From assembly GCA_029220445.1 (NCBI GenBank), contig GCA_029220445.1_3666.1: a stretch of DNA of 64,000 nucleotides. One strand, given 5' to 3'. Position numbers and translations under genes: made by a program. Origin of the DNA: a phage. This document shows positions 3,963 through 38,330 of this stretch, piece by piece. Each line of letters opens with the position of its first letter. The stretch's first letter is position 1. The notes beneath the pieces are model-generated. The model did not search any database and was not told the DNA's origin. It saw only the letters and a list, made by a program, of their open reading frames with translations.

Positions 3963-4424
3963 CTACTTAAACAACAGTTCAAAATAGTGCAAAATTAACA
4001 GAAGTTGAATTACGCCTAGCACAACAGCAAGTATGTTAATCTTAGAATCAAAAAACTTCTTAACTTTTACCCTAAAAGGTTCCTTAATGTCCTTTACGAT
4101 CCTATCTATAGATGACCTCATATCCCTGATTACCATCCTGAACATTAAAGACGGATGATCCCTCTCTGTAACGGAATCGAAAACATACTCTCTTTGATCA
4201 CAAGGGCCGCCAGCTCTGCGTATTAACCTCTCCACAGAGACCTCGTACGACACACCTGTAACGTAATCATCTATGACAAGGAGTGACGGGTCTTTATCGT
4301 CCAAGGGTATCAAAGTTATCTTTCCAGATTTTGTTAAAATTTCTCCTTTTTCAAGTAAGGTGTACCAATGCTCTCTGCCAAGACTGTTGAGGCACGTTTT
4401 TACATATTTAACAAACATCGTCAC
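3963..4424 (-). CDS. hypothetical protein with C-terminal transmembrane anchor
   Basis: 153-aa ORF ending ILAVVLGVIQLLLILHYFELLFK. Confidence 0.45.
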   Translation of the reverse strand: MTMFVKYVKTCLNSLGREHWYTLLEKGEILTKSGKITLIPLDDKDPSLLVIDDYVTGVSYEVSVERLIRRAGGPCDQREYVFDSVTERDHPSLMFRMVIRDMRSSIDRIVKDIKEPFRVKVKKFFDSKINILAVVLGVIQLLLILHYFELLFK

Positions 4425-4606
4425 CCCTCATCGCACGTCTGATATAACCACTCTATAAAATCTTGATACCATTCGCCCTCTGAGCGCTCCGTAGGCCAAT
4501 AATCTTCACCCTCTCGTGCATTAAAATCTGAGTATTCAACTTTCCACTCCTTTACCAGCTCGTGGAGAAGGTTTTCAGCCTGCTCTAAAGATTTATTTTT
4601 TGCCAT
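4421..4606 (-). CDS. hypothetical protein
   Basis: track ORF 4421-4624 begins at TTG; ATG at 4606 (MAKNKSLEQ...) follows AAGGAGA. Confidence 0.4.
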   Translation of the reverse strand: MAKNKSLEQAENLLHELVKEWKVEYSDFNAREGEDYWPTERSEGEWYQDFIEWLYQTCDEG

Positions 4607-4825
4607 TGCTGTCTCCTTTTTCAAGATAGTTATACATCAGAACTGCACCACCTAAGATGGCTACCAGTAACAATACCCCAGATAGCATCTCAATAAACAT
4701 GGCTTGAAACACTGGAAGGTCTCCCTAAATTAACGCACCATTTTAAATACATGCTCTTTTCCCATAAAGGTGCCTGGCTAAGATCTGCGTAGAACGCAAT
4801 CTCTTTAAGAACAGTATAAACAGTT

Positions 4826-5062
4826 TTAGGTGCGGTCTCCATCCCTACTCTCCTTTTTCTCCTTACGGATATTCTTGTAGTAATCAACTAGGCACATTAT
4901 TACAATGAAGATAACAATAGGCCAAAAAGGTGCAGCAGTGATGATGGTGATAAAATCATCAAACTCCACCTTTCGTCTAGCTAAGATGCATACACCTGTC
5001 AAGAATACCGCTGTTATAACGGCTATTACCAGGTAACCTATTAGCACAGCATTTATACTCAT
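4826..5062 (-). CDS. small integral membrane protein
   Basis: 78 aa with two long hydrophobic stretches and a basic C-terminus. Confidence 0.4.
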   Translation of the reverse strand: MSINAVLIGYLVIAVITAVFLTGVCILARRKVEFDDFITIITAAPFWPIVIFIVIMCLVDYYKNIRKEKKESRDGDRT

Positions 5063-5093
5063 TAGTCCTCCCTTTTGTAGGTTAAATTATATA

Positions 5094-5627
5094 CTACAGA
5101 TGGTTGCTTATGGTGTCAAGAAAATTATCTCGTTCTTTCTCGGAGTTTTCACGGGTGTAGCTGAAAAACATATCTAGAATAACCTTATTGATATATTCCA
5201 GCTCCTCTGTGTTCAGGTACTTAGCAGGATCTACAATGACATCCCAAATATCATACAGACCACACTCATGATATCCATAACGCCACTCAATTGTCAAGCT
5301 GAGCGGCAAATCTTTACCGTCACAAACAACCTTCCATCTACATATGTTGGTATCTGGGCGTATCTGTGCACGGTATACCTGTACAAAATCCAATTTGAAT
5401 TTGAGGTATTCGTCATGCAATTTAAGCACAAAGCTCTCGATTTGTGGAGACACTTTTGCAGCAAACTGTGCGTATTTGTATTTGCACTGGATGATCTTTC
5501 TGCGTTTTGCAGTTAAATTTTTTGCCGCCAGTTGTTCTTCAGTGTATCTCCACCTACGATCAACAAACGCAACAGGGTCTTTGTCCCCATAGAGGTCTTC
5601 CCAGTTAATCAGAAGCATACCTGTCAC
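5094..5627 (-). CDS. hypothetical protein
   Basis: 177-aa ORF. Confidence 0.5.
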   Translation of the reverse strand: MTGMLLINWEDLYGDKDPVAFVDRRWRYTEEQLAAKNLTAKRRKIIQCKYKYAQFAAKVSPQIESFVLKLHDEYLKFKLDFVQVYRAQIRPDTNICRWKVVCDGKDLPLSLTIEWRYGYHECGLYDIWDVIVDPAKYLNTEELEYINKVILDMFFSYTRENSEKERDNFLDTISNHL

Positions 5628-5857
5628 TCCTCCACAACTTCAAGGCCTTTACCGCCTCGCTCTGGCAGATTACTTAAAGATAGGTAATACATATAATCAG
5701 GAGAGATCCTGCCAGACTCTGCACCTGCAGATAGTAAATCTTTTCCCTTAACCATGACAACATTATCGTTTGCAGATAGTCGTTTTGCTTCCACAATTTT
5801 ACCAACGCAGTCAACCAAGGAAGGGTACCCTAAATCTGTAAGAAATTTAACTTTCAT
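5624..5857 (-). CDS. small protein of the acidic-tail paralog family
   Basis: MKVKFLTDLGYPS...KGKDLLSAGA...GLEVVEE. Confidence 0.5.
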   Translation of the reverse strand: MKVKFLTDLGYPSLVDCVGKIVEAKRLSANDNVVMVKGKDLLSAGAESGRISPDYMYYLSLSNLPERGGKGLEVVEE

Positions 5858-5896
5858 GCTACCTCCTACTTCTACCGTCCCTGGTAAGATAAATTA

Positions 5897-6295
5897 TTAC
5901 TGAACAAAGCGCGGAGCTGGGAAGGATAACTCTTCTAAAGAGAAGATTTCATTCCCCACAATCCATGTTGCAGGATCATCTGGGTTGACTGGATAGATAA
6001 TCATCACCTCGTCAGTGTTACATACCCGCTTTTTACCTGTGGAGTCATCAGCAACCAGCATGCGCGGTTCTTCAGAAATGCACAGGTAGCCTCCTCGGCC
6101 CACTGTTCCTTCCACAGGGTCTTGCCCTTTGATCACGATGATTATCTTCTCTCCTGAGGCGATATTACCTTGCACACTCACCGTTTGACCAACCTTGGAT
6201 GTGCCAATCTTAGTGACTTCGAACATTACATCCCTAATTACTGTTGCATAATCGCCAGACACTTTCTTACCTTCTTTAGTGATCTCAATCTTCAT
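5897..6295 (-). CDS. hypothetical protein
   Basis: 132-aa ORF. Confidence 0.5.
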   Translation of the reverse strand: MKIEITKEGKKVSGDYATVIRDVMFEVTKIGTSKVGQTVSVQGNIASGEKIIIVIKGQDPVEGTVGRGGYLCISEEPRMLVADDSTGKKRVCNTDEVMIIYPVNPDDPATWIVGNEIFSLEELSFPAPRFVQ

Positions 6296-6564
6296 ACACT
6301 GGGCTCCTTAAATGAATCTATGTAATCAATTAAATCCCAAGCATCCCTATGACCTGTCAGAGGGTATACTTCTCCAAGAGGGATCATAGCAATAAGTCTA
6401 TCAAAAACCCAATCTGGACGCAACATTTTATGGTGATACTCCCACTCACCTTCTACAGACTTTTTCTGAGTGATCAGGATCTCTGTGTAGTGTTTCGCCT
6501 GTCTTGAGTAGATTGAGAATGACTTGTACATAAATGGCCCCCTCTTGTTGAAAACAAAATACAC
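6292..6564 (-). CDS. hypothetical protein
   Basis: 90-aa ORF. Confidence 0.45.
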   Translation of the reverse strand: MYFVFNKRGPFMYKSFSIYSRQAKHYTEILITQKKSVEGEWEYHHKMLRPDWVFDRLIAMIPLGEVYPLTGHRDAWDLIDYIDSFKEPSV

Positions 6565-6566
6565 TA

Positions 6567-6881
6567 CTACCAGGTCACTGTCAAGTAGGCAACTGTGTTA
6601 TTTTTCTCCGGAGAGATGCCAACAACATCCACCTGCAGGCCTCCTGCCCTCAAATCCCCAACAATGTGTGGGAAGTAGTCTGAGAGATGCGAGGGTAGAT
6701 TTATCGAAAATCCGCATCCCAGAAAGCCTGCTAACGCTTTATTTTGTATCTCCCCTACAATCGCATCATAAATGGAGTTAAGCTCGTCAGGGAGCGTTAC
6801 AGGACGTTTTAGCGCTAACTGGTGTAATTTGTCCTTAGCACTCATTTTCATTTCAGGTCTACCTCTGGTGGTGCCAACCAC
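6567..6881 (-). CDS. hypothetical protein
   Basis: 104-aa ORF. Confidence 0.45.
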   Translation of the reverse strand: MVGTTRGRPEMKMSAKDKLHQLALKRPVTLPDELNSIYDAIVGEIQNKALAGFLGCGFSINLPSHLSDYFPHIVGDLRAGGLQVDVVGISPEKNNTVAYLTVTW

Positions 6882-28852: not shown

Positions 28853-30118
28853 TTATTCCAGCACCTCCCAAGTTTCTGGATTAAGATTGCGGAATGCGAT
28901 ACCCACAGGGAATTGAGGCACACCGTCCACCGTACGCTGTTGGAATTTTATCGTGATAAATTTGCCAACATATGAGCAGCATTTTTCGTAGTTCCTTACG
29001 GCAAAAGTGCCTTTCATTTTGCATTTGCATTGTGTCCCATCTTTCTCTTCGCAGATAAGAACACCTTCCCCGTTTTTATCTTTTTCAACACCGATCACTT
29101 TTGCTTCAACATCGGTGAACAGTTTCCACTTGAGCAGATCAGTAGAGCGTTGACCGTATTCGTAGGTGCCACGGAAGTTACGAATAATAGATCCTTCATA
29201 ACCTTCCTGCATGTACTGTCCGATGGAGTTGCGAACCTCTTCCTCGTTGTAGGCGATCTTGAAAGGAACACCCTCGACGTTGGTGAGATGGTTAACTTCA
29301 CAATAATCAATAACTTCCTGAAGATTTGTGGCCCGATCTTCCCAGCGATGGATGCAATCAGGAACATCGAACACCATCAGTTTCAGGTCATAAGAGCAGT
29401 AACCTCCATACCGATCAGAATCACGGACAGGTTCTTCATAAACCGGATGATCAACCTTGTTGAAGTCTTTCCATGTCTCCTCTCCGGCCTTGATCGCTTT
29501 CTCACGGCGTTTTATGTCTGCCATGAAATCCTTATCAATTTCTTTCTCAATGTCTTCCAGACTACGCCATTTCTTAACGAGGGAGGTTATTTTCTGCAAC
29601 GGTAAACCGTGAATGTAGAACTCCCCATCAAATTCATCAAAGCCTGTTTCTTCATGCAGGTCTTGTAGCTCACGGAGGATGTTACCTTTCGGCTCATACA
29701 CTTTGTTACCGCGAGAGATGAATTTAGGTACACCGTCTACGAATTTGACAAAGCAACGGTTCCCGTCAAGTTTGTGTTGCAGGTGGCATGGATACACAAT
29801 AGCGTGTGGTTTTTTCGAAGCATCTTGCGCCAGCATAGGTGAAATGTCAATGGCCTCAAGGTCTTCGACATTTTCTTTGTAACCCAGCCGGACTTGCTTT
29901 TCCCATTTAGACTGCGCCTCTAAAACAGCTTGTTCTTCTGCTGTAGTTTCGTTGGATCGCCCGATGTTTTTGGCTTCACATTTTGTGGTTTTTGATTGTA
30001 CAGCGCCACCAACCCTGCCGAACACAACAATAACCTCGTTGCCGCTTGTATCTACTTTCCACATCTGGATGGACCCGTCTTTATTGCGAGCATAAAGTGT
30101 TGTTTTGAATTGATGCAT
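28853..30118 (-). CDS. ATP-dependent DNA ligase
   Basis: adenylation motif I HKLDGNR (KxDGxR), EGSIIRN (motif IV) and LLKWK (motif V). Confidence 0.8.
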   Translation of the reverse strand: MHQFKTTLYARNKDGSIQMWKVDTSGNEVIVVFGRVGGAVQSKTTKCEAKNIGRSNETTAEEQAVLEAQSKWEKQVRLGYKENVEDLEAIDISPMLAQDASKKPHAIVYPCHLQHKLDGNRCFVKFVDGVPKFISRGNKVYEPKGNILRELQDLHEETGFDEFDGEFYIHGLPLQKITSLVKKWRSLEDIEKEIDKDFMADIKRREKAIKAGEETWKDFNKVDHPVYEEPVRDSDRYGGYCSYDLKLMVFDVPDCIHRWEDRATNLQEVIDYCEVNHLTNVEGVPFKIAYNEEEVRNSIGQYMQEGYEGSIIRNFRGTYEYGQRSTDLLKWKLFTDVEAKVIGVEKDKNGEGVLICEEKDGTQCKCKMKGTFAVRNYEKCCSYVGKFITIKFQQRTVDGVPQFPVGIAFRNLNPETWEVLE

Positions 30119-30745: not shown

Positions 30746-31459
30746 TTAAATATACTCTGTTACATCCTTGAAGCTCGAAGGCTTCATAATCTTACCTTTA
30801 TTGTCAAGGAATATGATAACTTTATTACCGTTGTAGAATTCTTCCTTGGCAACAAAACCTTCATATCGACCATCAAAGCGTCGTTCAAGATCTTTAATCT
30901 CCAACTCGATTAGTTGTTCAGCAGGCATATCTGCACTGGCACCGTGTGAATACCGTAGATGGTTGACCCGTGCAAACTTGCTGTCATTCGATTTGAGAAC
31001 CTTACGCATCATCCCGCACACATCGCCGCGAAGCTGGAACAGCAAAGCTGTTGACAACTCTGCTAAGCGGTAAGCAGACGCTCTTTGCTTAGAGGTGTTT
31101 TTCGCAGCGATCAGTGTATCATAGAACTCGCCGATCTTGAACTTAATACCTCGCGGATTATCAAACAGGTTTGACCACTTTTCGTGATTATCATTAACAA
31201 GATAAGCGGCATAACTTGTGACAACGTGAAGATCGCAGGCCTCTTTTAGCAGGTGATCTCCACCATCACCTTTCTCCAGCTCTTCCAAAACCTCATTGAA
31301 CTCTTCCTCAATGAAGCTAAGCTGTAATTCGAATGGTGTGTATGATTTTTTCACTTTAGCTGCCACACGGTTCCAGTTTTCCACCCAATTGGCAGACCAA
31401 AGGTAGTTTTCAGGCTGAGACAGTTTTTCCAGGTTGTCGATCAGTTTAGTATTCAGCAT
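30746..31459 (-). CDS. hypothetical protein, possibly MazG-like nucleotide pyrophosphohydrolase
   Basis: EEEFNEVLEELEKGD...LLKEACDLHVV resembles the MazG ExxE...ExxD metal-binding helix pair; weak. Confidence 0.4.
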   Translation of the reverse strand: MLNTKLIDNLEKLSQPENYLWSANWVENWNRVAAKVKKSYTPFELQLSFIEEEFNEVLEELEKGDGGDHLLKEACDLHVVTSYAAYLVNDNHEKWSNLFDNPRGIKFKIGEFYDTLIAAKNTSKQRASAYRLAELSTALLFQLRGDVCGMMRKVLKSNDSKFARVNHLRYSHGASADMPAEQLIELEIKDLERRFDGRYEGFVAKEEFYNGNKVIIFLDNKGKIMKPSSFKDVTEYI

Positions 31460-31472
31460 TAAAGGTCTCCTT

Positions 31473-32234
31473 TTAAAGTTCCATAAAGTTTTCTACAGTT
31501 TCAATAAATGCTTTATCAGAGAAAGCGTCAACAGCACCGTTAAACCATACAGGGATCCCGCGATCCTCATATTGATAAAGGTCGCTACGTGAAATGCCAC
31601 TTCCATCTGCACTCTGCGAATCATACTTGTTTACAATCAGCAGTTTTGTTCCTTTACAAGTAGCAGGAAACAATTCCCAGTTAAAATTAATAACTGTGTT
31701 AGAACAACCCACTAGGATCACCATATCATTGCTGGTGAGAGATGTCAACAGGTCATACATGTCTGTATACTTAGGAGCAACCTCACCGAAGAACACTACA
31801 TTGGGCTTAACCCAAGTATACTTGCCTGTATCTACCTCCGTGTATCCGATATTTTTAATTACATCATTACCTTCAGCATCTTCGTAGGTGATTTCAGGCA
31901 AATACCCGTGGACATGTAAAATATCTTCATGTTTTACACCAGCACGCTCCAGCAAATCATCTACATTGGTGGTAAGGTTGATCACACGACCAGACCAGCG
32001 GGAATACCACTCAGCGATCCGAAGATGTGCAAGGTTAGGATCAACACTGCCCAGAGCTACACGACGTGCATTGTAAAAGTCATGCACCTTATAGTAGTTC
32101 TTGGCAAAGGTGTGGATGTTGCACACCTCATCGATGCTGAAATTCTCCCACATTGCAGTGCTACCAGATCGGAAGGTGGGAATACCAGATTCTGCGCTCA
32201 AACCAGCACCAGAAATAACAATAAGTCGTCGCAT
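31473..32234 (-). CDS. Sir2-family (sirtuin-like) NAD-dependent enzyme
   Basis: GAGLSAESGIPTFR, TTNVDDLLERAG, catalytic HG (LHVHGYL), VFFGE; lacks the CxxC zinc ribbon. Confidence 0.85.
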   Translation of the reverse strand: MRRLIVISGAGLSAESGIPTFRSGSTAMWENFSIDEVCNIHTFAKNYYKVHDFYNARRVALGSVDPNLAHLRIAEWYSRWSGRVINLTTNVDDLLERAGVKHEDILHVHGYLPEITYEDAEGNDVIKNIGYTEVDTGKYTWVKPNVVFFGEVAPKYTDMYDLLTSLTSNDMVILVGCSNTVINFNWELFPATCKGTKLLIVNKYDSQSADGSGISRSDLYQYEDRGIPVWFNGAVDAFSDKAFIETVENFMEL

Positions 32235-32242
32235 AAATGTCC

Positions 32243-32593
32243 TTAGTAGATGTTTTGTTTGATCTCTATTCCAAACTTCTTGAATGAGTCAGCAGCAAGC
32301 ATAAATTTACGAGCTGCCGATGGATTAGAAGTATGCACGAAAATAATCACGTTGTCAATAAGTGGTGGCTTTCCGAATACAAGTTTCTCCTCTAGCGCAG
32401 AGAAGCAGTCGTACCCTTCAAGAACTTCACCTAGATCATTGTCAAAATACCATTCAGATACGCGTCTGTAGAGCTTTCTCTTATCATTAAGAAAATCCAT
32501 AAATTCAGAAGAATTCTTTAGCCACAGAGCGTCTGGGAGTCCATAATCTGACGGATCTCTAAAATCATCAAGCCACACAATCCACTTCTTCAT
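32243..32593 (-). CDS. hypothetical protein with CheY-like receiver (flavodoxin-fold) resemblance
   Basis: ATG at 32593 forms an ATGA overlap with the RNA ligase stop; IVWLDDF and VSEWYFDNDLGEV resemble receiver-domain blocks, with Glu at the phospho-acceptor position. Confidence 0.4.
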   Translation of the reverse strand: MKKWIVWLDDFRDPSDYGLPDALWLKNSSEFMDFLNDKRKLYRRVSEWYFDNDLGEVLEGYDCFSALEEKLVFGKPPLIDNVIIFVHTSNPSAARKFMLAADSFKKFGIEIKQNIY

Positions 32594-33525
32594 TGCATAT
32601 AGTCCTCGTTGTGGAAATAGCAGTCCAGTATCTCGCGACGCTCCTGCTCTAATAAGCAATTCCACACATCTTCTGTATAGTTGCTACGAATAAATTTTAC
32701 CATACCGTAAAACTCCTCGTCAACACGTTTAAAAATATCGTCATCCCAAATCTTCCATGCTTTACCTCTCATTACGGCCTTCCGTGCCAAATAGTATGGA
32801 GACTTGATCTTCAGCTGCAGGTCATAAGGGCAGTAAGGCTTACGGATCATATACCCTTCGCCCCTTGTTTCTGCAGCTAATTCTTTTGCATAGCTGAACG
32901 GGATTTCACGCACAGTGTGAGGACGTTTTGCACCAAGGTATTTGGCAATCCCATCTAAAGCTGCTTCTGGTAGCATTATTCCAGAATCATTATATCTGCA
33001 ACCTATCAAATATGCGCCATGGTCTTCTTGAACAATATGCGGATCTGAAGGGTGACAAATTTCAAACATGAATGTCATGTTTTCATTGCCCATAACCTTC
33101 TTGATAAGATCTAAATTACCACATTGCTCTTGGATGGTTTCCTTTGCAAGGTTACAATATGGAGAATCAAGAGACCCGGTTGTTGAGAACAATAGTTCAC
33201 CTTTATGAGATGATACCACACCGAGGAATCCGTTCTTTTTCTCTACCGCAGTAACAAGTTTACTGTCCGGTAGGTTGGTGGAGTTTTCTCCTAAGTTGAA
33301 TACTTTTGTGAAAGGCCATGCCACAACATTCCCCTCATTGCCAACAACAATACCTCGGCACTCCAGTAAACGCGGAGACAAATGCCACAGATTGTTGTAG
33401 AATACTTTTCTGGCATATTTATAGATCTTTAATCCAAGATCTGGATAATACCGACTGGTTACAAGACCTTTGTCTACTAGGTCATCTGCATTAAAATACT
33501 TCATCATACGTTCCTCATTTGTCAT
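32590..33525 (-). CDS. RNA ligase (Rnl2-like nucleotidyltransferase)
   Basis: EKKNGFLGVV (motif I KxNG), FMFEI (motif IV), GEGYMIRKPYCPYDLQLKIKS matching T4 Rnl2 EGYVLKP...IKCK. Confidence 0.75.
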   Translation of the reverse strand: MTNEERMMKYFNADDLVDKGLVTSRYYPDLGLKIYKYARKVFYNNLWHLSPRLLECRGIVVGNEGNVVAWPFTKVFNLGENSTNLPDSKLVTAVEKKNGFLGVVSSHKGELLFSTTGSLDSPYCNLAKETIQEQCGNLDLIKKVMGNENMTFMFEICHPSDPHIVQEDHGAYLIGCRYNDSGIMLPEAALDGIAKYLGAKRPHTVREIPFSYAKELAAETRGEGYMIRKPYCPYDLQLKIKSPYYLARKAVMRGKAWKIWDDDIFKRVDEEFYGMVKFIRSNYTEDVWNCLLEQERREILDCYFHNEDYMQ

Positions 33526-33568
33526 TTTGTCAGTCTATCCTGCCACACAAATAACCTAGTGTCAACAC

Positions 33569-33597
33569 TTGAAATTAACAAAACAGTTAGGTATACT
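33569..33597 (+). promoter_or_regulatory. sigma70-type promoter TTGAAA-N17-TATACT
   Basis: hexamers at 33569-33574 and 33592-33597 in the divergent intergenic region; GGAGGA SD and ATG at 33626 follow. Confidence 0.5.
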
Positions 33598-33625
33598 ATC
33601 ATTAAAATTAAAACGGAGGATTGCT

Positions 33626-34036
33626 ATGTCTAAAATGCTATATATCGTGCGTGGTCTGCCAGGGTCTGGCAAATCAACACTGGCAAATGCGCTATCTTTA
33701 GAAGGTCTGTATCCACATTTTGAGAACGACATGTTCTGGTATGACGATGACGGCAATTACAACTGGGATGCAAGTAAAGTAACACTCGCAGCAAAATGGT
33801 GCAAAGATAACGTAGAAGATATGATGAGTATGGGATACGACCGTATCGTGGTAAGTAATACGTTTACAAAAGAAAAACATGTGCAGGAATATGTTGACAT
33901 GGCAATCAGTCATGGGTATAGTTATACCGTGATCGTGGTTGAAAACCGCCACGGTAATAAAAGCATTCATGATGTTCCAGACAAGGTTGTGGATCGTATG
34001 GAACGCCAGCTTAAAAACTGCATTAAACTTAAATGA
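33626..34036 (+). CDS. P-loop polynucleotide 5'-kinase-like protein
   Basis: MSKMLYIVRGLPGSGKSTLA resembles the N-terminus of the T4 Pnk kinase domain; start taken at ATG 33626 rather than the track's TTG 33569. Confidence 0.65.
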   Translation: MSKMLYIVRGLPGSGKSTLANALSLEGLYPHFENDMFWYDDDGNYNWDASKVTLAAKWCKDNVEDMMSMGYDRIVVSNTFTKEKHVQEYVDMAISHGYSYTVIVVENRHGNKSIHDVPDKVVDRMERQLKNCIKLK

Positions 34037-34043
34037 GGAATGT

Positions 34044-34598
34044 ATGAAATACTTTGTAACAAGCGACACACACTTTCTCCACCAGCGGGTCATGGAGTTT
34101 GATTCATGTCAAAAACACAGATCTCAGTATGATCACAATCTTGACAGTATGAATGCGGGAATCATCGCCGAGTGGAACTCTGTTGTGTCACCTGCAGACA
34201 CTGTGTTCCACTTGGGAGATATTGCGTGCACTAATGATAAGAATATCAACAAATTACTTCCAGATATTCTAGATATGTTGAACGGACATATTATTCTTGT
34301 TCGTGGCAACCATGACACAAGGACGACTGTCAGAATTATGAAAGAGTTCTATCACGAGGTTGTAGATTATTACGAGCTTCGCCACAACAAGAATTTGATC
34401 TGTATGAGCCATTACCAATTTGCAAAGTGGAACAGAAAGCCTCACGGATCAGTCCAACTGTTCGGTCATGCTCACGGAACCACACAACAGTTGTTTGGCA
34501 GGCAGCTTGATGTCGGTTGGGATGTGTGGGGGAGACTCTTACCATTAGAAGAGGCATACCGTACTGCAATGAGTTTTGATATTGACAGCAGGGAGTAA
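34044..34598 (+). CDS. calcineurin-like metallophosphoesterase (putative 2',3'/3'-phosphatase)
   Basis: MKYFVTSDTHFLH, HLGDIA, LVRGNHDT, GHAH metallophosphatase motifs; start at ATG 34044 with GAGGAA SD. Confidence 0.8.
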   Translation: MKYFVTSDTHFLHQRVMEFDSCQKHRSQYDHNLDSMNAGIIAEWNSVVSPADTVFHLGDIACTNDKNINKLLPDILDMLNGHIILVRGNHDTRTTVRIMKEFYHEVVDYYELRHNKNLICMSHYQFAKWNRKPHGSVQLFGHAHGTTQQLFGRQLDVGWDVWGRLLPLEEAYRTAMSFDIDSRE

Positions 34599-34645
34599 TC
34601 CCTGCTATTTTAAAGAAAATTGCCACACAAGGAGAATCAGGAGAT

Positions 34646-34996
34646 ATGAAAGATGGGGATAAGCTGCTATATCTTAAAGTCCCCCTTGAAATACTGTCTA
34701 TGTCAAAAGTTTTGAATGACACAACTGGGGAGGTTGTTGTTCTTGACTTGTATGACAAGATCGTATACTGCTACCTGCACAACTGGTATAAACTTGGAGG
34801 AAATTCACGCTTCACACCCAGCACAAGGAAAATTGCAGCAGATGTTGGGATAAAGAAAACAAAAGCAGCAGCGTGCGTTAAAACTTTAGAATGTGCAGGA
34901 TTGGTTGAAACATCCACACAGGGGAGAGGTAAAAGATGCACATTTTCCAAAGTTTTGCCACCAGAAAAAGTTATTCGAATGTCAACAACTGGTTAG
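34646..34996 (+). CDS. winged-helix DNA-binding protein
   Basis: STRKIAADVGIKKTKAAACVKTLECAGLVE helix-turn-helix segment; gene ends 76 bp before the operator array. Confidence 0.5.
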   Translation: MKDGDKLLYLKVPLEILSMSKVLNDTTGEVVVLDLYDKIVYCYLHNWYKLGGNSRFTPSTRKIAADVGIKKTKAAACVKTLECAGLVETSTQGRGKRCTFSKVLPPEKVIRMSTTG

Positions 34997-35071
34997 ACCA
35001 GTAAAAACTTAAATATCTGTACTATAAGGATTCGTATGTTTTATGTTCGCTCTGGAACAGAGGTTAGTAAC

Positions 35072-37517: not shown

Positions 37518-37592
37518 GCCCTGTTAGCTTAGTGGATAAAGCAGCGGCCTTCTAAGCCGTTGACACTGGTTCGAGTCCAGTACGGGGTGCCA
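37518..37592 (+). tRNA. tRNA-Arg (anticodon TCT)
   Basis: manual fold: 7-bp acceptor, D arm GCTT/AAGC, anticodon loop CTTCTAA with U33, T loop TTCGAGT, encoded CCA. Confidence 0.8.
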
Positions 37593-37596
37593 AATT

Positions 37597-37683
37597 GGGG
37601 AGTTATCCCGTAGAGGTAGCGGTGTAGACTGTAAATCTATTGTCATTGCGACTCGGGTGGTTCGACTCCACCACTCCCCACCA
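37597..37683 (+). tRNA. tRNA-Tyr (anticodon GTA), class II with long variable arm
   Basis: perfect 7-bp acceptor GGGGAGT/ACTCCCC, anticodon loop CTGTAAA, T loop TTCGACT, encoded CCA. Confidence 0.8.
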
Positions 37684-37797
37684 AATTTATATTTTTAGAT
37701 GCATAAATAATACAGATAATGGCATTGATATTTATCGTCGTTTATACTAGTCACTAACTGCTCGAAAATCAGTGTCATTATCAGTATAATTTATAAA

Positions 37798-37888
37798 GGA
37801 GGGTAGGGAGCAATGGTGCTCAAGCGGTCTTGAAAACCGTCCCGTTGAGGATGACTCGATGATGGTTCGATTCCATTACTCTCCGCCA
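37798..37888 (+). tRNA. tRNA-Ser (anticodon TGA), class II with long variable arm
   Basis: acceptor GGAGGGT/ACTCTCC, anticodon loop CTTGAAA, 20-nt variable arm, T loop TTCGATT, encoded CCA. Confidence 0.75.
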
Positions 37889-37986
37889 CATTGTTGACCT
37901 TGTAATTAAGCGAAAGCCGGAAGCAGAACCGGATTATCAAATGTTACAGTCGTCATCGCCGACTAGCAACATGGTCAACATACTGA

Positions 37987-38083
37987 GCTAGGTAAGCCCT
38001 TTGGCAAGGGCGAGGATTTTTAATCCTGAAAATAGACGAGGTAGTCGTTGAATACATAGGTGGTTCGATTCCATCACCTAGCA
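37987..38083 (+). tRNA. tRNA-like element with aberrant anticodon arm (possible Lys-UUU variant or pseudo-tRNA)
   Basis: perfect 7-bp acceptor GCTAGGT/ACCTAGC, canonical D arm and T arm, but the anticodon-arm position is a 5-bp stem with a 5-nt loop TTTTA (or 4-bp stem with loop TTTTTAA) and about 30 extra nt precede the T arm; no encoded CCA. Confidence 0.35.
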
Positions 38084-38090
38084 CCTTTTT

Positions 38091-38166
38091 GCTGATGTAG
38101 CACAATCGGTAGTGCAATTGATTTGTAATCAATAGGTTGTAGGTTCAAGTCCTGCCATCAGCACCA
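38091..38166 (+). tRNA. tRNA-Thr (anticodon TGT)
   Basis: perfect acceptor GCTGATG/CATCAGC, anticodon loop TTTGTAA, T loop TTCAAGT, encoded CCA. Confidence 0.8.
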
Positions 38167-38167
38167 A

Positions 38168-38242
38168 GGCCCTGTAGCTGGAAGGTTCAAGCAAGCGACT
38201 CATAATCGCCAGACGGTGGTTCAATTCCACCCAGGGCCACCA
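38168..38242 (+). tRNA. tRNA with CAT anticodon (Met or lysidine-modified Ile)
   Basis: perfect acceptor GGCCCTG/CAGGGCC, anticodon loop CTCATAA, T loop TTCAATT, encoded CCA. Confidence 0.8.
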
Positions 38243-38253
38243 AATAGTAAATA

Positions 38254-38330
38254 CTCCGCGTAGCTCAGCTTGGTAGAGCGCCTGATTTGGGATCAGGAGG
38301 TCGAGTGTTCGAATCACTCCGTGGAGACCA
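38254..38330 (+). tRNA. tRNA-Pro (anticodon TGG)
   Basis: acceptor CTCCGCG/CGTGGAG, anticodon loop TTTGGGA with G37, T loop TTCGAAT, encoded CCA. Confidence 0.8.

Follow-up and report, generated by a model that had tools for sequence, protein, structure and literature searches.

The window analysed here is a stretch of 64,000 nucleotides of phage DNA (contig GCA_029220445.1_3666.1 of the NCBI GenBank assembly GCA_029220445.1) from a Vequintavirus that is essentially E. coli phage rV5. It carries, side by side, genes coding for an ATP-dependent RNA ligase (32590-33525, minus strand, 311 aa), a P-loop kinase (33626-34036, plus strand, 136 aa) and a metallophosphoesterase (34044-34598, plus strand, 184 aa), all three at the positions given in a preliminary description made from the sequence alone. 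These genes probably form the core of a phage RNA break-repair pathway, in which the kinase and the phosphoesterase would heal the ends of broken RNA and the ligase would seal them. This reading is supported by intact catalytic motifs, similar folds, conserved gene linkage and the fusion of kinase and ligase in some phages, the gene context being the strongest argument. The preliminary description had proposed the same triad: the conserved linkage of a ligase, a P-loop kinase and a metallophosphoesterase with intact motifs was borne out, and the enzymatic activities, the RNA substrate and the counter-defence role are predicted ones.

Linkage of the three genes across phages

Gene linkage was surveyed in 80 viral loci anchored on the ligase subfamily, which is present in 662 phage records, and in 80 loci anchored on the kinase family, the open reading frames (ORFs) being scanned with queries from the window. 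The ligase-anchored loci correspond to 41 clusters at 70% identity and the kinase-anchored loci to 29. As the iterated kinase hidden Markov model drifted to generic P-loop proteins (241 hits over 171 loci), only the hits of the first round with E <=1e-8 were used. A kinase gene was found nearby in 37 of the 41 ligase-anchored clusters and a phosphoesterase gene in 35. Three further genes that accompany the triad in the window, coding for a cREC protein, a sirtuin (Sir2) and a MazG-like pyrophosphohydrolase, were detected in 3/41, 4/41 and 4/41 clusters, respectively, MazG co-occurring with Sir2 in 4 of the 41 lineages. The kinase-phosphoesterase-ligase triad is a widespread core, and cREC, Sir2 and MazG are an extension found in the rV5/Mydo lineage. 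The usual arrangement is co-directional, in the order phosphoesterase>ligase>kinase or kinase>ligase>phosphoesterase, with a median kinase-ligase gap of -4 bp, the kinase gene often overlapping that of the ligase. The divergent transcription pointed out in the preliminary description is real in the rV5-type locus (L093) but was seen only there, the genes found in the other 40 of the 41 lineages being on one strand.

When the loci were anchored on the kinase, a phosphoesterase gene was present in 59 of 80 and RNA ligase genes in about 50. At the level of the 29 clusters, 23 contain the phosphoesterase, 13 an Rnl1-type ligase, 12 a PF09414-type ligase and 22 either ligase. In-frame fusions of kinase and ligase were observed in 13 loci belonging to two clusters (L142, L139, L132 and L127 among them; e.g. 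L142 9530-10825). The fused protein of ~430 aa carries the 130-aa kinase at its N-terminus and the Rnl1-type ligase at its C-terminus, and no phosphoesterase gene occurs within the fetched flanks of these loci. In one phage from fresh water, the genes of the kinase and the phosphoesterase adjoin or overlap each other and a PF09414 ligase gene is located 1.8 kb downstream, and in another phage the kinase is near a HAD_PNKP phosphatase instead. Since the kinase and the phosphoesterase are combined with different sealing enzymes, the healing pair can be described as a mobile cassette. Cultured phages with linked repair genes include Proteus phage Mydo (phosphoesterase ... ligase-cREC-kinase-hypothetical-Sir2-DNA ligase), Pseudomonas phage PaP1 and Phapecoctavirus nepoznato.

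The same loci bear on two other functions that might be attributed to the kinase and the phosphoesterase. The pair could heal DNA ends (5'-OH and 3'-phosphate) for the phage DNA ligase, in the manner of PNKP. T4 Pnkp acts on DNA too, and in the window an ATP-dependent DNA ligase gene (28853-30118) lies 2.5 kb from the repair genes; in phage Mydo the DNA ligase gene comes directly after Sir2. The phosphoesterase moreover gives a weak NCBIfam match to the ligase-associated phosphoesterase PdeM (E 8e-4, 18.9 bits for a cut-off of 150). However, a DNA ligase gene is present in only 7 of the 80 kinase-anchored loci, never adjacent to the kinase, and its median distance in the ligase-anchored loci is ~2 kb; the RNA ligase, by contrast, adjoins or overlaps the kinase in 43 of 72 loci. 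Healing of DNA ends is, on this evidence, very improbable.

Alternatively, the substrates of the kinase and the phosphoesterase could be small molecules (nucleotides, derivatives of NAD or ADP-ribose, or immune signals of the cyclic-nucleotide type) instead of RNA ends; the cluster would then be an island for anti-signalling or NAD metabolism in which an RNA ligase happens to lie. In favour of this possibility, which we find quite unlikely, a NAMPT gene is located <=10 kb from the ligase in 42 of the 80 ligase-anchored loci and a PRPP synthetase (PRS) gene in 32, both genes come directly after the kinase in phage PaP1, and Sir2, cREC and MazG are all NAD- or nucleotide-linked domains. Iyer et al. 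(2022) name the kinase merely 'nucleotide kinase' (PMC9503650). In the kinase-anchored loci, a set without ligase bias, PRS and NAMPT are nevertheless found in only 6 of 80 and never <=1 kb away, whereas this very set is the one holding 59 phosphoesterases and about 50 RNA ligases. The kinase-ligase fusions also argue against a small-molecule function, as does the absence of NAMPT and PRS genes from the window, in which a search for a second RNA ligase and a HAD_PNKP phosphatase was likewise negative.

As partners of the kinase in place of the RNA ligase, NAD salvage and DNA ligase were both rejected, the two links being much weaker. The NAD+ salvage genes were located in the ligase-anchored loci L093-L171, in L173 (Mydo) at 1-1601 and in L174 (PaP1) at 4322-6867; their presence near the ligase may reflect the clustering of counter-defence genes or an NAD-consuming repair step.

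The RNA ligase is of the Rnl1 type

The ligase (rV5 ORF82) matches Pfam PF09511 (RNA_lig_T4_1) over the whole model (positions 1-227/227) with 55.2 bits (cut-off 28.3; E 1.1e-14), and PHROG 562 with an E-value of 8.9e-66. The preliminary description had called it Rnl2-like, which is not correct: PF09511 is its sole Pfam match, PF09414 is not matched at E <=0.01, and no Rnl2 chain of the PDB is recovered at E <=1. A profile of 25 family members was searched against 177,635 PDB sequences and matched only T4 Rnl1 (2c5u, 5tt6 and 9do4; E ~1e-12); with a single-sequence phmmer search of the PDB nothing meaningful was found, so that the family profile was required. The AlphaFold (AF2) model of the ligase has a predicted local distance difference test (pLDDT) score of 89.7, and in a Foldseek search T4 Rnl1 ranks first (E 4e-12), followed by archaeal Rnl3 and by fungal Trl1 ligase domains, whose sequence identity to the ligase is 16-18%. 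T4 Rnl2 appears at rank 29 (E 1e-5), with a template modelling (TM) score of 0.39.

Ten residues, R57, K74, F76, K96, G99, E155, E223, G224, K239 and K241, are invariant in the 25 family members. In the profile alignment they correspond to R54, K75, F77, K99, G102, E159, E227, G228, K240 and K242 of T4 Rnl1. These T4 positions, which include the Rnl1-specific Arg54, Lys75 and Phe77, are the residues described as essential in the mutational literature. The motif I lysine is K96, and the nucleotidyltransferase motifs I, III, IV and V are all retained; the residue equivalent to T4 Lys119 is a threonine. Judged by its motifs, the enzyme would seal RNA 3'-OH/5'-PO4 ends after self-adenylylation. 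Its score against the T4 RnlA equivalog TIGR02308 of NCBIfam (37.5 bits) is far under the cut-off of 242, and by this measure the ligase is not an ortholog of T4 RnlA. The sequence alignments with T4 Rnl1 end near residue 245, and the C-terminal region is helical and comprises ~65 aa, versus ~120 aa in T4. As for the N-terminus, translation more likely starts at the ATG at 33507 (305 aa) than at 33525, because a GAGGA Shine-Dalgarno sequence lies just upstream of it, the family consensus begins at the equivalent of MKYF, the records of the BASEL collection give a gene of 918 nt, and residues 2-7 of the model have a pLDDT <50.

The GenBank label of this gene, 'RNA ligase 1 and tail attachment protein', is copied from T4 and raises the question whether the protein is chiefly a catalyst of tail-fibre attachment, like the second activity of T4 gp63, and unrelated to its neighbours. 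In phages T4 and Bas37, rnlA is needed for growth on E. coli K-12 (10.1101/2025.11.20.689424). By contrast, the ligase gene of the sister phage Bas54, whose product is 97.7% identical to that of the window, is non-essential and carries insertions at 56 of 60 TA sites. The conserved operons and the fusions with the kinase, together with the low score against the RnlA equivalog, also stand against such a role, which is hardly tenable.

The stand-alone kinase

The kinase (rV5 ORF81) belongs to a very large family of AAA_33 proteins that are ~130 aa long and stand alone; at least 7,989 homologues were counted. It matches the AAA_33 model of Pfam with 41.3 bits (cut-off 27; E 2.4e-10) and PHROG 505, 'polynucleotide kinase', with an E-value of 4e-10. 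The P-loop GLPGSGKST occupies residues 10-18, and the family invariants comprise this loop, E33-x-D35, W58-C59, S77-N78-T79 and E106-N-R-H-G110. Its assignment to the polynucleotide 5'-kinase clade, already made in the preliminary description, held in profile searches, in hhalign comparison and at the level of the fold. As with the ligase, a single-sequence phmmer search of the PDB returned nothing meaningful and the family profile was required. The full-length matches of the profile in the PDB are weak (E 1e-4 to 1e-2) and concern kinases of tRNA or polynucleotides (PSTK, Pnkp1, T4 Pnk and CthPnk), whereas small-molecule kinases are matched at the P-loop only. When the profile was aligned by hhalign with the kinase domain of T4 Pnk, a probability of 96.2% was obtained over 122 columns (E 2e-9). 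In this alignment S77-N78-T79 faces T4 S84-D85-T86, with Asn in place of Asp; among the lid arginines, R108 aligns with T4 R122 and the position of T4 R126 is variable (K/N).

The AF2 model (pLDDT 82.9) gave TM-scores of 0.75-0.76 with CthPnk, 0.73 with Pnkp1, 0.66-0.75 with T4 Pnk, 0.70 with PSTK and 0.59-0.60 with mammalian PNKP, compared with 0.46-0.60 for shikimate, gluconate and adenylate kinases. The fold is nearer to polynucleotide kinases than to nucleoside or nucleoside monophosphate kinases, which is a further point against a small-molecule substrate.

The metallophosphoesterase

The third protein of the triad (rV5 ORF80) is a binuclear metallophosphoesterase of the aq_1665-like family. 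Its gene starts 7 nt past the kinase stop codon, which is overlapped by a GAGGA sequence. It matches the Metallophos model of Pfam with 30.1 bits (cut-off 21.5; E 7.9e-7), and the motifs D8-T-H10, G58-D59, G88-N89-H90-D91, H123 and G141-H142-A-H144 are each present in >=90% of 109 homologues. The Metallophos match and the ORFs bear out a calcineurin-type enzyme separate from the kinase, unlike the fused HAD-type Pnk of T4, as had been noted from the sequence. In the PDB, the closest structure is 1xm7 (Aquifex aq_1665), matched with an E-value of 5e-11 by the single sequence and of 1e-23 by the profile. NCBIfam matches to the YfcE family and to the 2',3'-cyclic nucleotide monophosphate phosphodiesterase SpdA are weak (E 1e-3 to 5e-3, far below the cut-offs) and would fit an action on small molecules. 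In the repair pathway proposed here, the phosphoesterase is presumed to be the enzyme that heals 2',3'-cyclic or 3'-phosphate ends, and it may work like the Pnkp phosphatase though outside that branch. Healing of RNA ends by a metallophosphoesterase has precedents in bacterial Pnkp and the lambda phosphatase.

In some members of the phosphoesterase family (e.g. L052, 8311-8814; L078, 8015-8533), the metal-binding residues of the GD, GNH and GHxH motifs are lost, and a kinase and a ligase gene are still found beside them. Such degenerate members may be inactive, RNA-end-binding paralogues.

Associated genes

A gene overlooked in the preliminary description codes for a 116-aa cREC protein (rV5 ORF83; 32243-32593, minus strand), matching Pfam PF20274 (cREC_REC, 'cyclic-phosphate processing receiver domain') with an E-value of 1.6e-13. 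Its ATG overlaps the TGA of the ligase gene as ATGA, and it is translationally coupled to the ligase. The conserved residues are the receiver-like acidic D9, D10, D51 and D53, with T88/S89 and K96. The cREC domain was defined in a 2021 jumbo-phage paper by the authors of Iyer et al., where calcineurin-like phosphatases in phage RNA repair were also noted.

The sirtuin (rV5 ORF84; 31473-32234, minus strand; Pfam SIR2, 6.9e-28) is of class III (CobB-like): its best PDB match is E. coli CobB (2e-21), and it is closest to CobB and SIRT5. The NAD motifs and the catalytic His (HVHG) are retained, and the positions of the CobB zinc-ribbon ligands are occupied by residues other than cysteine. Since these cysteines are missing, a substrate other than acyl-lysine proteins is suggested. 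The juxtaposition of Sir2 with the repair genes, from which a counter-defence island had been proposed, was found as described, but Sir2 is more than a mere neighbour: in relatives it shares an operon with the kinase, and the Mydo-like phages have the order ligase-cREC-kinase-Sir2 with gaps of ~10 bp in several of them. The MazG-like nucleotide pyrophosphohydrolase (rV5 ORF85; 30746-31459, minus strand) was identified by PHROG 671 (5e-22) and by the rV5 RefSeq annotation; searches of Pfam, NCBIfam and the PDB gave no match for it.

An unusual tRNA gene is located at 37987-38083 (plus strand), in a tRNA cluster at 37518-38330 and 3.4 kb from the repair genes. ARAGORN reports it as 'tRNA-??? (atcc)', and the Rfam tRNA model matches it with 35.5 bits (gathering score 29) as a tRNA-Lys (anticodon UUU) whose variable region holds an insertion of 26 nt that folds as an extra 5-bp hairpin (minimum free energy z-score -3.3). 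The gene is conserved at >=99% identity in 96 records of Vequintavirus; its annotation there reads tRNA-Lys or tRNA-OTHER, or is missing. tRNA-Lys(UUU) is the classical target of PrrC, and this gene could provide a nuclease-resistant replacement or a decoy.

Locus organization and source phage

Over the 2.7 kb from 32243 to 34998, the window shares 99.6-99.7% identity with E. coli O157 typing phage 14 and with rV5 (NC_011041). This region is >=90% identical in 119 of 120 phage records, nearly all of Vequintavirus, where the genes are annotated as RNA ligase, ATPase or polynucleotide kinase, and phosphoesterase. As the region is conserved and annotated in this way and each protein has hundreds to thousands of homologues, the three ORFs are not due to chance. 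In rV5, ORF80 is named phosphoesterase, ORF81 ATPase, ORF82 as quoted above, ORF83 hypothetical, ORF84 Sir2 and ORF85 nucleotide pyrophosphohydrolase, and the BASEL records name ORF81 'polynucleotide kinase'. The six genes (MazG, Sir2, cREC, ligase, kinase and phosphoesterase) are all contained within 30746-34598. About 18-23 unannotated GenBank records labelled 'Campylobacter phage' (MG0656xx; host C. jejuni) are 97-99% identical to this region and look like coliphages that were contaminating or assigned to the wrong host.

The intergenic region 33526-33625, between the ligase and kinase genes, had been designated as the strand switch of the window, in agreement with the orientation of the ORFs and with the cumulative GC-skew, whose minimum falls within 32-34 kb. 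To the left of ~33.5 kb, all ORFs of >=180 aa are on the minus strand except one antisense ORF nested in the DNA ligase gene; beyond this point, large ORFs have the plus orientation, with three antisense ORFs overlapping plus-strand genes as the exceptions. On account of this change of strand and of the skew minimum, 33526-33625 is taken as the only strand switch of the window. Within it, the kinase gene is preceded by a sigma-70-like promoter (TTGAAA-17-TATACT, 33569-33597) and by a Shine-Dalgarno sequence, GGAGG, at 33616-33620. A consensus scan of the region revealed no convincing sigma-70-like promoter on the minus strand that could serve the ligase.

The gene that immediately follows the phosphoesterase, at 34646-34996 (plus strand), codes for a helix-turn-helix (HTH)/DUF6945 protein labelled 'replication initiation protein' or 'transcriptional regulator' in annotations. 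In Bas54 this gene is of the 'Intermediate' class with few insertion reads, unlike the repair genes, and for this reason it is probably outside the module.

Published prediction and transposon insertion data

Cassettes of this kind were reportedly described, probably for the first time, by Burroughs and Aravind in 2016. Iyer, Burroughs, Anantharaman and Aravind (2022, Viruses 14:1977, PMC9503650) predicted the neighbourhood to be an RNA-repair system with phage V5 as prototype, in which cREC would be a metal-independent cyclic phosphodiesterase, the sirtuin a KptA-like enzyme removing 2'-phosphate with NAD+, and MazG would help in the clean-up. The cluster is therefore already annotated and was published as an RNA-repair prediction in 2022, so that the present reading, although correct, is largely known. 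The gene set of the sirtuin-centred 'type 2' neighbourhood of that study (V5 and Proteus phage Mydo), namely sirtuin, T4-like tRNA ligase, cREC, kinase, MazG pyrophosphatase and calcineurin-like phosphoesterase (PMC9503650), is identical to that of the window, which is the prototype phage V5 itself at 99.6% identity and shows no structural difference from it. The emphasis differs, however: the published description centres on Sir2 and regards the phosphoesterase as 'occasional', whereas in the present survey the triad is the core (35-37/41) and cREC, Sir2 and MazG are rarer (3-4/41).

The only experimental data come from the HIDEN-SEQ transposon preprint of 2025 (10.1101/2025.11.20.689424) and concern Bas54 (MaxBurger), of which seven proteins were compared and found to be 84-98% identical to those of the window. 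On E. coli K-12, the MazG-like, sirtuin, ligase, kinase and phosphoesterase genes are non-essential and cREC is 'Intermediate'; in addition to the ligase gene, those of the kinase and the phosphoesterase are hit at 33/36 and 26/27 TA sites, respectively. None of the six genes is conditionally important in the resampling rows listed for the clinical strains CFE303 and CFE311 (log2 fold change +0.1 to +0.4, adjusted p >=0.75) in the same preprint (10.1101/2025.11.20.689424). Dispensability on K-12 is as expected for conditional accessory genes.

Discussion

In the RNA repair pathway proposed here, host metal-independent ribotoxins, e.g. anticodon nucleases, would cleave tRNA or another RNA, so that the broken ends carry a 2',3'-cyclic phosphate and a 5'-OH. 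The 136-aa P-loop kinase would phosphorylate the 5'-OH, the metallophosphoesterase would strip the cyclic or 3' phosphate to yield a 3'-OH, and the Rnl1-type ligase, adenylylated on Lys96, would then seal the break. cREC, Sir2 and MazG may provide a second route for the 3' end, via a 2'-phosphate.

Several observations weigh against this reading. The invariant D35 of the kinase is in the segment of the catalytic T4 D35, but hhalign pairs it with T4 D36. The equivalent of T4 Arg38, which contacts the acceptor 3'-phosphate, is absent, this position being aromatic (F/W/Y) in the family. The published name of the kinase, quoted above, is noncommittal as to a polynucleotide substrate. For the phosphoesterase, aq_1665 is the sole solved relative and has no known function, the profile recovered no CthPnkp, Pnkp1 or lambda phosphatase chain in the PDB at E <=1, and some family members have degenerate active sites. 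The reading offers no reason for a cREC/Sir2 route to exist beside a metallophosphoesterase. Furthermore, a literature search found no biochemical study of the proteins of this module, and the lack of a fitness cost both on K-12 and on the two clinical strains of E. coli points to no natural target nuclease.

In a wider scheme, possible but rather unlikely, the rV5-like triad would be one half of a convergently assembled, eukaryote-style tRNA ligation pathway working alongside the direct metallophosphoesterase route. In such a scheme a 2'-phosphate would be produced by cREC through opening of the 2',3'-cyclic phosphate, the ligase would seal the RNA and leave a 2'-phosphate at the junction, and Sir2, devoid of zinc ribbon, would remove it with NAD+ as an analogue of Tpt1/KptA. 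The tRNA-Lys(UUU) of the phage itself, highly conserved and bearing an extra hairpin, might be serviced by this route as well. The comparison is with fungal and plant Trl1 and Tpt1/KptA: the ligase domain of Trl1 belongs to the Rnl1 clade and gives a strong fold match (E ~1e-11), and the predicted roles of cREC, kinase, ligase and Sir2 parallel those of CPD, KIN, LIG and Tpt1 (PMC9503650). On the other hand, the domains are unrelated or distant (cREC versus a 2H phosphodiesterase, Sir2 versus Tpt1), the proteins of the window are separate, and the additional metallophosphoesterase would make the 2'-phosphate route needless.

The healing-and-sealing pathway proposed for the triad follows the same logic as Pnkp (PseT) and Rnl1 (RnlA) of T4, which repair tRNA-Lys cut by PrrC with a 5' kinase, a 3' phosphatase and an Rnl1-type ligase. 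The ligase of the window shares the essential Rnl1 residues and the kinase is of the same P-loop clade. The two systems differ in that the kinase of the window is a stand-alone protein of 136 aa, unfused to a phosphatase, and that the phosphatase is a binuclear metallophosphoesterase whereas that of T4 is of the HAD type (DxDxT). The ligase, with 311 aa and a shorter C-terminal helical region, is not an RnlA equivalog and, unlike T4 rnlA, is dispensable on K-12, as shown in Bas54. The bacterial Pnkp-Hen1 and Pnkp1-Rnl-Hen1 systems (Clostridium thermocellum, Capnocytophaga gingivalis) likewise combine a P-loop kinase, a 2',3' phosphatase of the metallophosphoesterase type and an ATP-dependent ligase, and the kinase of the window is closest in fold to CthPnk and Pnkp1 (TM 0.73-0.76). 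Here, however, the activities would reside on three separate polypeptides, with a phosphoesterase of another branch and an Rnl1-type ligase instead of the Pnkp ligase domain. Judging from annotation, no profile search having been made, the 6 kb to each side in rV5 and in EmilHeitz contain no gene for a Hen1 methyltransferase.

As the result of a genome scan, the finding restates an existing annotation and a published prediction. If the prediction is true, a sizeable group of virulent phages possesses a modular kit for tRNA/RNA repair; the carriers include Vequintavirus, Phapecoctavirus, Pakpunavirus and many Vibrio, Aeromonas, Acinetobacter and Streptomyces phages, several of which are in therapy cocktails. 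The aq_1665-like phosphoesterase, the 130-aa kinase and cREC would then be new RNA end-processing enzymes, since no biochemically characterised member was found, and the Sir2 step, if true, would represent a new sirtuin chemistry. For the phages themselves, the kit could weaken defences that act by cleaving tRNA, for example PrrC, RloC, HEPN nucleases and collateral cleavage of the Cas13 type.

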